A DNA stretch of 64,000 nt from Carcharhinus longimanus (taxonomy: Eukaryota). Where the stretch lies: contig JASCQW010000154.1 in assembly GCA_030264375.1 (NCBI GenBank), positions 23,012,906 to 23,076,905 on the forward strand, written 5' to 3'. A program made the position numbers and the translations under genes. Within the stretch, counting starts at the first letter, position 1, and each line of letters begins with the position of its first letter. The notes beneath the pieces are model-generated. The model had not been told where the DNA came from, made no database searches, and saw only the letters and a program-made list of their open reading frames with translations. Below are positions 55,731-60,400 of the stretch, piece after piece.

Positions 55731-57339
55731 ACCAGAGCTAGCAACACCGGGCGCTTGTCAGCACCAATTCCTGCCTTTTTTTTTTCTGCATGTATTTCAG
55801 GGAAAGGAGAAGAGAGAGAGAGAAAGGCTGACAAATTTCCTTTCTTTTTGCAGGCTGCAAAATACTTTCTTGAGTAAAATACCCACAGGTAAGCCACCGC
55901 CTTCTCTATAACCAATATTAGGCTTCAGAAATATTATGCCCTATATGTATATATTGAATGTCGGTCAAGGGGGAAAGATAGAGGGATGAAATATTGCAAA
56001 GCGACATATTTTAAGCTTCTCTCTGTGGGACCAGTGTGTGTTCTGCTCACCCATGTGGTTGTATGTGGTATGTTTCTTCTTTGCCTGCAAGGCGTTCTTT
56101 TAACGTTTGGCAACCCGATTCCGTCTGTTATTAGTCATACATGTTTTCTGTATCGATGGGCGATCCGTTCGGGCGCGTTGACTGCAAACTTTAAGCATGA
56201 ATATTGAATAATTGTTCCAATGGCCTATGTGTGGTGCATGGGGTGGGTCAATGAAGGAGGTCGGGGGTGGGGGGAATCGAATGAACTACCTCCACAACAT
56301 CAGTCAAGATGCAAGTTTTAAAAAAAACTACACCCACTTATGGCTTCCTAGTGTGTTCCATTCCCCCATTATCCTACAGGCGAAATTGGTGCAGGAGAAT
56401 GATCTCTCTCTCTCTCTCTCTGTCTCTATGCCCCCTCACCCCACCTTCCCCTCCCCTCTCCCCACCCACCCACCCCTCTTTATTAGACAGGCTGGTTGAT
56501 AGATTATTTTCTGGCTCTTCCAGCATATGAAAATTACTTACAGGCTTGCTGCTGTAAGTGGGTGGACTAAACTGAACTCAACAGTTAGGTCACTTGACAA
56601 TGTATGCTAACGTTTAAGAAGTGGTGTGTGNNNNNNNNNNNNNNNNNNNNNNNNNNNNNNNNNNNNNNNNNNNNNNNNNNNNNNNNNNNNNNNNNNNNNN
56701 NNNNNNNNNNNNNNNNNNNNNNNNNNNNNNNNNNNNNNNNNNNNNNNNNNNNNNNNNNNNNNNNNNNNNNNNNNNNNNNNNNNNNNNNNNNNNNNNNNNN
56801 NNNNNNNNNNNNNNNNNNNNNNNNNNNNNNNNNNNNNNNNNNNNNNNNNNNNNNNNNNNNNNNNNNNNNNNNNNNNNNNNNNNNNNNNNNNNNNNNNNNN
56901 NNNNNNNNNNNNNNNNNNNNNNNNNNNNGGTGGTGGTATGGCTGGTAGATTTGGCGTTTCCAACCCTGGCCCCCTCCACCGAAAGTGAGGAGTTAACAGC
57001 AAACAGTGAAACATTCGGCAGTTTTCTATCCAATTGTCTGCAATACGTTGCCCATACTTAGACAAACTGCCTATTACACTCAGACAATTGCATACTCCGT
57101 TCAGTGGTAGGATAAAGGATTACCGCCGCACCATTTGTCATGCAGATTTCCTGCTTTGCTTTTTAACCATCGATCCAAAGCATGTTTCTTTCTTTTATCA
57201 ATGTTTTTTTGCTGATTACAATATACACCTGCAAGTAATTTAAGTAATAACAACTCGAAATCTGTGCAGCCAAACTGCAGCGGGTGCATCTGCCTGATTT
57301 TTCGCGTTTTTTCCACTCGGAATTGTTACATATTAAGCA

Positions 57340-57440
57340 GTGCATTTAGGCGACTGAAAATTGCGGGTAATTATCTTGATGGAAAGCGCTTTATTCAGGG
57401 AGCTACAGTCAAAATTGCTCTAATTACAGCCCCTTTCACA
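57340..57440. promoter_or_regulatory. Intergenic enhancer candidate resembling the I56i core (paired AAAATT-N-TAATTA sites)
   Basis: GAAAATTGCGGGTAATTATC...GCTACAGTCAAAATTGCTCTAATTA has two TAATTA homeodomain sites 53 bp apart and is collinear with the mouse I56i core as recalled. Confidence 0.7.
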
Positions 57441-60400
57441 CAGGCATAAAAAAATCTTAAAATAGCAGAGAAGTGGGCTTTGCACACGGCTTCCAGTGCA
57501 GATGTTACGGGAGGAGGCTTGACATGCGAGCTATTATGCATTAAAATCTGTAAACACCACTATCTTGTCTTGTAGACTGACTTTGACAAAAAATTGGGAG
57601 CGCTTACCATGGATTTCAATACGTGTTGTAGTTTCTGAAATGTGACAAGTGGACACACGTGGTAAGTAATGCGTTTCTTAATTGCGAATGTTAGATACAG
57701 GTGTATCTGTCAGACCTTTGAACAAGGGATATAGATTTATTCTCTTCCATGTTTTTTTTGAAGGAATCGTCGAGCACAGATTTCCCCCGGCTAAAGGCTG
57801 AAAGGCCGTCAGTCCCGACTGACAATCAGCACATATTATAACTTAATCAATCTCCTTTCGTACGGCTGGTTTATCTGTTTGCTTGGGTAACCACAGGCTC
57901 ACTGAAGCTATTCATTAATATTCAGCAAAGGAATACATGATAGCATGTGTTGAGTAACATGTAAGGGGGAAGCCAATATAAAACGTGTTATTTCCCACAT
58001 GGAACTGAACTAGCACAGATTTGGGATCGGCCTCCAGTGACGTACTACAGGCGGTAAAAGGCGCACAAAATGTTGATTTGATGTATTGTGTTGCCACCAT
58101 TTTATTATCATTTTTAAAGGAAGGCAGGGGTTAAAATAAAGATAACTACATAAATGTCATTTAGGTGCAAAGGTTGGCGGGCTGATCGAAATGAAAGGCA
58201 AAATAAAATACTAATGTCCAAAGATGCAATTAAAGCTACAAGTTAAAAAATGTACACTGTTAGTCGGTGAGCAAATCGATTGGCCACAGTTTGGATCGAA
58301 TGATGTACAGCAGCCGGAAGCTGTAGCAGACAATACATACACTGCACATTGATAAGACAAGTTATTACCTACAATTATTTCCCTTGTGACAGGTACTAAC
58401 TTTCATTTTTTGCCCCTTCTCTCTTTCAGTTTAGTATCTCAATGGCATATGTCATTATATGCTTACCATTAAATAGAAAATAGATTCAGCTTGGCTGAAC
58501 CACCACCACCTCCGCCAGCCCCAGAAACAGGTATCTTTAGGGTTTTTTTTTCAGTAACTAATTTGCCTCAGCATAACGCTAATACCGTCAGCTCTTCCGT
58601 TTGGTTAGAAAGGGAAGAGCGTAGGAAAATTGCCATCCAACTCTTGGTCCAACTAAAGTTTATACTCCATATTCAGGAAATCCCAGATCACTTGAGATAG
58701 ATACAAAGGTAAGGCCTTCGCTTACCCACACTGGAAACCACAGCTGAATTTTAAAAGTCCAGGGGTTTTTTTTAATCATAAAAGACGAATAACAACATTT
58801 CCAAAAATTCACCAATTATTGGCAAATCAAAATGTGGTCATGCAAGAAAAAGTCACGTTTCCTCCACTTTTTAACATGACCGCATACATTTTTTAATATA
58901 TATTTTAAAAAATCTATTAAGCTTCGTATCTATGCTCGACCCCCCCCCCCCCCAAAGAGGAAATTTAAGCTAGAAATTGTGAAGGGAGGTGAAATGAATG
59001 GAATAGTTTGATCAATTACATGCAGTCATCGCGTCTTTCCTTTACACATAATTACAGTTGAATCCACAGTAAGTCGGCATTGCTTTTTCCTTTAAAAAAA
59101 TGCTAACACACTCCGGTTTCTATAATCCTGAGGAAGGTACTATTAAATTGAATAGCCAGGTATATCCGAATTGGGTGGGTATAGGATGCTTCGAACGCGT
59201 TATCACTGTTTTACTTAGAATAATGAAACATAATACATATGCACTATTTACAACTAATTTAACAATATATACACACACGCACGCACGCACGCTCACACAC
59301 ATACTGTGTTCTCTGGCCCTCTGTTCTCCAAGAAATCATTTGCCTTCATATTGCTTGGATGAGCAAAACACAACCCCTTTATTTCCCTACATAAGCTGTA
59401 CTTCAAAGAGGAGCCACTGTCACGCGTTTGGTTCTTTCAGAGTGTGCAACATACACCATTCATCATGAATTGTTTTGTTGAGTGTTGATGGGGATGGGGC
59501 AAGGCCGATGGTTTTGACGGTTAAAAAAACGGGTGGGAACGACCCGGTATAGAGACCACTGCCTCGAGTCATTTTTAACTCTTGAACATGGTGACAAGAT
59601 ATCATTTGAGAGTTAACCGTGGTAAACCACCCAAGGATTAGGCCGAACGATATACAAATTGGATATTTTAATAGAAAAAAAACTGACATGGAAAGATTGT
59701 TCCCCCATTCAACACAGAACGGACCAAACAACTGGCTGCCAAAATGTTGTTTTCTTAATGAGACAAAACACTGGGTATACACAGCATTTCCTCCAGCTAC
59801 TTTAAGAGGGTTAATGCTTGAGGTATTGACTTTGTTTTGTTTCAGAAATTAGAGGGAATTTCTGATCAAAGATCAAAACCCGACACGTTGGCCTATCTTT
59901 TCCCTTGTATGGATATCGACTAATCCATTGTGTATTCCCAGTCTTGCGGTTATATTTCAAGTCTACACAGTACTGCGATTGTATGTGGCGGGATTGACCA
60001 AATGCACTTTGCCTTGACACAGATCTGTTGTTTTTTTTGAAATGGACATTCCAGTCGCAATAATCTTCAGCTAACCAGCTGTTTGCAGCTTTGACTGACT
60101 GAAGATATATCGGGAAAATTATAGATTAACGTTCAAACTGGAACTACGGCAATTAAATTAAATTAAAATTCAAGCAAATAAAGAAATAGCCTCAAAGGAA
60201 AGGGGGAACTACCTGCCAGTAAAACCTTTGAAATACAGCCTATGTACTGTGCTCAACTAAGAAGAATCTGCATCTTGGAGTAAAAATTCAGTTTGTTTTG
60301 TTAAAACACGAAAATTGAGTTTAATAGAACAGCTATAAAATCAGTCCTTTTTTGCAATTCACAACGCAGATTATAGATGTATCAAACTTCTCCAATTGAA

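Follow-up and report, generated by a model that had tools for sequence, protein, structure and literature searches.

Few long non-coding RNAs (lncRNAs) can be traced across the jawed vertebrates, and fewer still across loci that are paralogous through the vertebrate genome duplications. Here we describe a likely example in a 64,000-nucleotide (nt) window of the shark Carcharhinus longimanus, to which all plain positions below refer. In the cluster of the head-patterning genes Dlx3 and Dlx4, a spliced RNA seen in a related shark has an exon that contains a paralog of the Dlx5/6 brain enhancer I56i, and an intron that spans the whole of Dlx4 on the opposite strand. This RNA is likely a non-coding ohnolog of Evf2/Dlx6os1 that would tune Dlx3/4 in cis, a reading to which we give a probability of about 0.72. 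A preliminary description of this DNA had supposed that an I56i-like element is crossed by a spliced + strand transcript directed antisense toward Dlx4. This central idea is borne out by a splice junction in contigs of a related organism and by alignments among Dlx clusters.

A spliced RNA antisense to Dlx4

Eleven sequencing runs cover the region, none of them recorded as RNA. Five (X1-X5) were guessed to be RNA, all from one related organism and from two studies, X5 coming from a different study than X2. Their highest-depth contigs match the Dlx3 3′ untranslated region (UTR) and end at 51004-51036, beside an AATAAA at 51029. Because of these ends, and because the joint described here is GT-AG, we take X1-X5 to behave as RNA. 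All five RNA-like runs have contigs within 57109-57963, which cover parts of the first of these features:

56984..57661, + strand: transcribed exon ending at donor 57661, from contigs of the relative; 5′ end undefined
57659..57671, + strand: used splice donor GTG-GTAAGTAATG, from the X2 switch, its first letter in X5 and an 11-mer in common with Dlx5/6
57662..64000, + strand: the part in the window of a 23,886-nt GT-AG intron that ends at G000:C154:23094452, past the window

The contig that carries the junction, 856 nt long and from X2, spans 56984-57661 and then splices. It aligns to 57653, continues with an insertion and the exon end, and switches exactly at 57661; the relative's 7-nt insertion after 57651 is also found in X1 and X4. 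The first letter of the same switch is visible in X5. After the joint the X2 contig has 139 letters, 15 of them visible, and these match 15/15 at L008:8454 (G000:C154:23094453, + strand), directly after a pyrimidine-rich stretch and AG. By simple arithmetic about 3e-6 chance matches of these letters are expected in the 45 kb scanned, and the 17-mer at the far acceptor occurs once in the 2.68-Gb genome. The intron from 57662 starts with GTAAGT and ends with CCCAG. Its upstream exon is intergenic, 3 kb past the Dlx4 stop, and Dlx4 exons 1-3, on the opposite strand, all fall inside it. The next exon, L008:8454-8550, runs for 97 nt to the next donor and lies about 15.5 kb upstream of Dlx4 exon 1. 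The antisense direction was deduced from GT-AG, the contigs being unstranded. Both splice sites are intact in the genome of the window's own species, which would presumably make the same splice.

Elsewhere the contigs are plainer. X1 and X4 contigs cross donor 57661 unspliced with the donor intact, and contigs over the transcribed exon are collinear upstream to about 56960, adjoining an assembly gap. No cover of the predicted first exon, the I56ii-like element (both described below) or 58430-58577 was seen in the five runs, although absence in contigs proves nothing. Three candidates were rejected. An X1 piece at 55804, within a GA repeat, vanished on a second alignment and was spurious. A break between two X1 contigs near 57190-57215 is read as homopolymer variation and not as a splice, because it overlaps a T run and begins upstream of the possible acceptor. 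Reading the joint as AT-AC on the minus strand was also dropped, as no U12-type branch sequence was found by inspection.

Enhancer paralogs in the intergenic DNA

Two elements between Dlx3 and Dlx4 match intergenic enhancers of the other two clusters by local alignment:

55391..55737, no strand assigned: paralog of I56ii (Dlx5/6) and I12a (Dlx1/2)
57297..57436, no strand assigned: paralog of the enhancer core of I56i/ei (Dlx5/6) and I12b (Dlx1/2)

For the first element, 55539-55737 aligns with I56ii at a score of 134, where the best of 100 shuffles reaches 40 (71% over 173 bp, E 1.8e-10), and 55391-55726 aligns with I12a at 67 (best of 60 shuffles 37). The second scores 81 against I56i (shuffle maximum 46; 75% over 84 bp, E 3e-7) and 51 against I12b (shuffle maximum 40). 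The I56i-like element of the preliminary description is thus real by alignment with its Dlx5/6 counterpart, and it lies inside the exon of the spliced X2 contig. Matches to the elements of the other clusters, all in the same genome, are collinear and in the same orientation. The core has TAATTA at 57368 and 57421, and such a pair, 53-56 nt apart, is found in all three clusters.

A genome-wide DNA search with 57100-57700 or with the downstream exon found no paralog; it took sensitive local alignment of the Dlx loci themselves to bring the paralogs out. Passages of PMC3695995 compare catshark Dlx3/4 intergenic DNA with its mouse and zebrafish orthologs and report no conserved region; it is this ortholog comparison that those passages describe, and they contain no comparison of paralogs.

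A donor and a predicted first exon in common with other clusters

The 11-mer GGTAAGTAATG at donor 57661 is identical to that at the donor after I56i at Dlx5/6 (L016:5408, G000:C132:67981407). In the 506 kb of three Dlx loci, both strands, that formed the comparison set for motif counts, it occurs twice, once at each paralogous site, 240 nt (57661) and 277 nt (L016:5408) after the second TAATTA. Donor 57661 lies 225 nt outside the enhancer core, and the intervening sequence has diverged from Dlx5/6.

A further unit lies at the I56ii-like element:

55684..55689, + strand: TATA box, predicted promoter of the antisense RNA; TATAA(A/G) aligned in three clusters
55715..55888, + strand: predicted first exon, start approximate, donor CAG-GTAAGC; predicted from sequence alone

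TATAA(A/G) stands at the distal end of the I56ii/I12a-type element in 3/3 clusters, with an AG-GTA(A/T)G donor 204 nt (Dlx3/4), 155 nt (Dlx5/6) and 204 nt (Dlx1/2) after it; the background for such donors is 0.10 per kb. We therefore predict that 55715..55888 corresponds to exon 1 of Evf2. A passage of PMC12297475 gives mouse genotyping primers placed on either side of the insertion site in that exon. One of them maps to the I56ii end at Dlx5/6, pointing toward Dlx6, with 4/24 mismatches (the next best site has 8), and the forward primer found no placement (8/24 mismatches). The preliminary description had paired an acceptor at 55853 with donor 55888. The donor has positional paralogs in both other clusters; it most likely ends a first exon, and the acceptor is therefore not needed. 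Transcription would begin either at the 55684 TATA box, giving a short exon that ends at 55888, or further along, somewhere from 55.9 to 57.0 kb.

Corresponding stretches can be named at the other shark clusters. At Dlx5/6, L016:1630-1785 is a predicted TATA-led first exon of shark Evf2 after I56ii, and L016:4903-5408 is a predicted 506-nt Evf2 exon over I56i with a strong acceptor and donor. At Dlx1/2, L012:5045-5249 has a TATA box and a donor 204 nt apart at the I12a end and is a predicted first exon of shark Dlx1as. A 107-nt AG...GT stretch (L024:498-604, G000:C132:68034497-68034603), located some 47 kb upstream of Dlx6, is weakly like the downstream exon of the Dlx4 antisense RNA, with the donors aligned; it is a candidate Evf exon, only suggestive.

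Splice motifs and a candidate cassette exon

The preliminary description had listed strong splice signals on the + strand, every one of which is found where it was placed: TACTAAC at 58394-58400, a 26-nt pyrimidine tract and CAG at 58427-58429, donors after 58708, 58530, 57661 and 55888, and the acceptor at 55853. Are they stronger than expected by chance? We assessed this by regular-expression counts and Markov simulations. The 58429 acceptor is the only combination of TACTAAC, a tract of at least 80% pyrimidine and AG in the 506 kb (both strands), and the pattern arose in 1/300 order-3 Markov simulations of the intergenic region, bearing in mind that this strict pattern was defined after the site had been seen. 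GGTAAG occurs three times on the + strand of the intergenic region and four times on the minus strand, and 90/300 simulations give at least three. The acceptor is therefore unusual, while the donors as a set are, on motifs alone, no rarer than chance. Two donors gain weight from other evidence: 57661 from the RNA contig and its Dlx5/6 paralog, 55888 from its positional paralogs in both other clusters.

The acceptor opens one more feature:

58430..58708, + strand: candidate cassette exon with strong acceptor 58429 and donors 58530 and 58708; motif-based

The exon chain first proposed, from 57661 to 58430, is not the one that the contigs show. The sole full junction skips 58430-58708 and lands at G000:C154:23094453, and a junction from 57661 to 58430 was not seen in the RNA-like contigs, which leaves acceptor 58429 without junction support. 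Nor can 57661 to 58430 be the junction in X2, because the 15 post-junction letters have no placement in the window; a search there gave one match with 3 mismatches, upstream and at chance level.

A second isoform, from 57661 to 58430 and then from 58708 (or 58530) to the far acceptor, would be compatible with the Evf2-like reading, but we consider it rather doubtful. The rarity of the acceptor speaks for it, as do X4 and X5 contigs that hold the diverged middle of the interval (aligned at 58620-58656, extending over about 58578-58750) and an X1 contig that holds the branch-point region at 91% identity. On the other hand, the X2 contig joins across the interval, the relative's copy is strongly diverged outside 58620-58656, and the X4 and X5 pieces, being unstranded and showing no readable splice, could be the far end of a Dlx4 3′ UTR that reaches at least 59094. 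At Dlx5/6, moreover, only about 1 kb separates the donor from the Dlx6 stop, which leaves little room for a counterpart.

Locus and cluster assignment

The window holds a convergent Dlx pair, Dlx3 (+) and Dlx4 (-), with stops at 50063 and 60613:

46163..50063, + strand: Dlx3 coding span, three exons, from DLL_N and homeodomain matches, tblastn and a catshark primer
60613..60864, - strand: Dlx4 exon 3, from a catshark primer match; inside the antisense intron

The coding exons of Dlx3 are 46163-46498, about 48400-48591 and 49758-50063 (+). Dlx4 exon 2, together with the 3′ portion of exon 1, lies directly past the window end, within the antisense intron, and the remainder of exon 1 falls in an assembly gap. 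Catshark primers for both genes were taken from a passage of PMC3695995. The Dlx3 primer has 3/27 mismatches in the window against 9-10 at the other two clusters, and the Dlx4 primer 2/26 against 9. Catshark I56i and I56ii primers map to contig C132 with 1-4 mismatches of 20. For I12a and I12b, 3/4 primers are placed consistently on contig C32 with 2-5 mismatches and the fourth found no placement. From these placements the window is Dlx3/4, C132 is Dlx5/6 and C32 is Dlx1/2.

Comparison with known Dlx antisense RNAs

What follows on published RNAs draws on passages of the cited papers. The closest relative is Evf2 (Dlx6os1, DLX6-AS1), which likewise starts between the genes of a convergent Dlx pair and has the I56i/ei element in an exon (PMC4047558). 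Dlx6 lies wholly inside Evf2 intron 2, so that in both cases a spliced RNA passes antisense over a whole Dlx1/4/6-class gene, Dlx6 there and Dlx4 here (PMC4047558). Because the 57661 intron spans all of Dlx4, the layout is closer to Evf2 than was first guessed. Shark Dlx3/4 and shark Dlx5/6 have the same 11 nt at the donor that follows the element, and the predicted first exon lies at the I56ii-like end, the place to which the mouse exon-1 primer maps. The two differ in that the shark contigs are unspliced upstream to about 56960, with no exon 1-2 splice seen, and in that sequence likeness is limited to enhancer cores and donors. The shark RNA is located at Dlx3/4, and Dlx5/6 is on C132; it is therefore a paralog of Evf2 and not its ortholog.

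Mouse Dlx4os (A730090H04Rik) belongs to the same cluster and the strand opposite Dlx4, and it reaches about 13-14 kb upstream of Dlx4 (PMC13003849), compared with about 15.5 kb upstream of Dlx4 exon 1 for the shark downstream exon. It differs in being listed as bidirectional with Dlx4 (PMC4001054) and not starting in the Dlx3-Dlx4 intergenic region; PMC13003849 and PMC4001054 place it, as an antisense or bidirectional transcript, at the 5′ end of Dlx4. Dlx4os resembles Evf1, because its human interval, obtained by lift-over, starts from the 5′ end of DLX4. The shark isoform seen does not start at the Dlx4 5′ end; a shorter isoform may do so.

Dlx1as (DLX1AS) starts between its genes, has an exon 1 over a conserved enhancer and is antisense to Dlx1 (PMC4047558, PMC6062504); it has already been described as positioned like Evf2 (PMC2829031, PMC6062504, PMC4047558). 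Shark Dlx1/2 has the same 204-nt spacing from TATA box to donor as Dlx3/4. Exon 2 of Dlx1as overlaps Dlx1 coding sequence, whereas the shark junction skips all of Dlx4, and no donor like 57661 follows I12b. As for the enhancers I56i/I56ii and I12b/I12a themselves, their matches to the shark elements are significant, collinear and in the same orientation, with TAATTA pairs in common; the shark elements differ in lying at Dlx3/4 and are putative enhancers.

Ghanem 2003 and Sumiyama 2002/2003 reportedly noted short likenesses between I12b, I56i and Dlx3/4 elements. A full-text literature search, which covered main texts and few subscription papers, found no Evf2-like RNA or I56 paralogs at shark Dlx3/4, and the passages seen of PMC3024246, PMC2891724, PMC3595034 and PMC11979771 hold no statement on such paralogs or RNA. 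How new this is may also depend on the lists of paralogous elements in PMC3595034 and on Figure S1 of PMC3695995. With that said, we regard a Dlx antisense enhancer-lncRNA at shark Dlx3/4, with sequence traces of ancestry shared with Evf2, as new and as a real feature.

Alternative explanations

The absence of a credible open reading frame, as claimed in the preliminary description, is confirmed for the part of the transcript that was seen: the longest ATG frame in the spliced models has 23-40 codons. The relative's 57661 exon has frame-breaking indels, including the 7-nt insertion, and 50000-64000 has no Rfam match at E <= 1. Could the exon instead be a 5′ leader, far removed from its gene, where that gene codes for a protein or micropeptide and lies upstream of Dlx4 on the + strand? 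The 97-nt downstream exon does have one open frame, with an ATG followed by 22 codons to its donor, and the rest of the transcript is not seen in contigs. An open frame of 32 codons is, however, common by chance. Of 146 + strand frames of at least 55 codons over the 51 kb after the acceptor, 145 have no Pfam match and one falls below the cut-off, a screen that would miss short exons. Among 12 candidates in longer proteins, a protein search with the downstream-exon frame had no homolog at E <= 0.01; this is weak evidence. Taken together, we find a leader improbable.

A more serious competitor takes the RNA for enhancer transcription, a by-product of enhancer activity that is occasionally spliced at a nearby strong donor, in which case the enhancers are old duplicates and the RNA has no function of its own. 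Contig depth is indeed low (2.5-12.6), X1 and X4 are unspliced, the 5′ end is undefined and GGTAAG donors have a chance frequency in the region. We nevertheless judge this unlikely, given that a donor 225 nt outside the core keeps an 11-mer identical to Dlx5/6 while the sequence between has diverged, that the acceptor exon is 15/15 identical between two species whose non-coding DNA in the vicinity is at most about 90% alike, and that the TATA-plus-donor unit is present in all three clusters. An artefact is far less probable still. The joint is known from one contig, of depth 12.6, in a run whose type was guessed, and might result from chimeric assembly or from a deletion in the relative's genome; yet its two sides coincide exactly with GT and AG, the unspliced donor and sequence from within the intron are present in other runs of that organism, and X2 itself has a Dlx4 3′ UTR contig from inside the intron.

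Several observations weigh against an Evf2-like RNA at this locus. There is one readable junction, to which the second study contributes one letter; the contigs are unstranded and come from a relative with about 90-95% likeness, and that the runs are RNA is only a guess. Splicing is partial, because X1 and X4 pass donor 57661 unspliced. The 5′ end departs from the Evf2 model, in that X1, X2 and X3 contigs run collinearly upstream past the site of the Dlx5/6 exon-2 acceptor. At 57200-57201 AG is present in the relative and at Dlx5/6 but AA in the window, whose next AG is at 57234-57235; in the relative, a pyrimidine tract and AG at this place align with the Dlx5/6 exon-2 acceptor. At Dlx1/2, I12b is not followed by a matching donor. 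The counterpart of the downstream exon upstream of Dlx6 is weak, with a score of 49 that 0/60 shuffles but 7/28 real controls come up to (at least 48 for the latter). Finally, a passage of PMC8520905 presumes that the Evf2 promoter is in I56i and is removed with it, and not at I56ii.

Proposed mechanism and significance

With these points weighed, we are reasonably confident that a Dlx4 antisense RNA exists and shares common descent with Evf2, and we continue with the Evf2-like reading. From the common layout, Evf2 and the shark RNA likely descend from one ancestral non-coding RNA gene that predates the vertebrate genome duplications. By analogy with Evf2, DLX proteins would bind the paired TAATTA sites and activate both the Dlx pair and the RNA. 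The RNA would start at or after the I56ii-like element, and polymerase moving antisense through Dlx4 and its promoter would damp Dlx4. The exon that contains the enhancer may in turn help to bring DLX and chromatin factors back to it. In the passages cited here, loss of Evf2 raises Dlx6 in cis, and the Evf2 RNA recruits DLX1/2 and MECP2 (PMC4047558). For damping of Dlx4 in cis by the antisense RNA, the chances appear to be about even.

A broader idea can be put forward, which we hold to be roughly a coin toss. Evf2, Dlx1as and the Dlx4 antisense RNA may be three duplicates of one lncRNA that existed before the duplications. The intergenic ultraconserved elements would then be in part its promoter (I56ii/I12a) and in part its second exon (I56i/I12b). 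Sharks would have kept a complete Dlx3/4 unit with a donor unchanged since the duplication, and mammals only the Evf1-like half, as Dlx4os.

If correct, the common donor, the unit of promoter and first exon, and the intron layout would date the Evf2 design to before the split of Dlx3/4 and Dlx5/6, and would partly explain the strong conservation of Dlx intergenic elements. The published picture of shark Dlx3/4 intergenic DNA without a conserved element, as given in passages of PMC3695995, would be revised. The shark RNA, a natural Evf2 paralog whose splice sites are known and which does not belong to the forebrain cluster, would also make it possible to test directly whether RNAs of the Evf2 type are important as molecules.

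Other features of the window

Some observations concern Dlx4 itself. At 78% over 59 bp (E 4.8e-5), the stretch 59222-59277 matches a region about 340-400 nt past the Dlx6 stop, and it is likely a 3′ UTR element common to Dlx4 and Dlx6. A Dlx4 3′ UTR of at least 1.5 kb is suggested by X2, where a contig of depth 205 covers 59094-59417. In Dlx4 intron 2, an X1 contig of depth 4.1 at 61112-61253 may come from pre-mRNA or from a further antisense exon, or may mark a conserved intronic element, and 61884-61961 is a tandem duplication of a 38-nt unit.

The remainder of the window has features of assembly and repeats. Sequence is repeated on both sides of 100-N gaps at 47628-47776, 5083-5430 and 32449-32784; these are probably false duplications at scaffold joins. 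A 45-nt piece of an extremely high-copy repeat lies at 52969-53014, with DNA run depth above 400,000 in its bin, and is also found at other Dlx loci. Decayed reverse-transcriptase-like frames, which we take to be typical of LINE retroelements, lie at 24588-26462 (-), 778-1095, 12083-12284 and 31283-31603.

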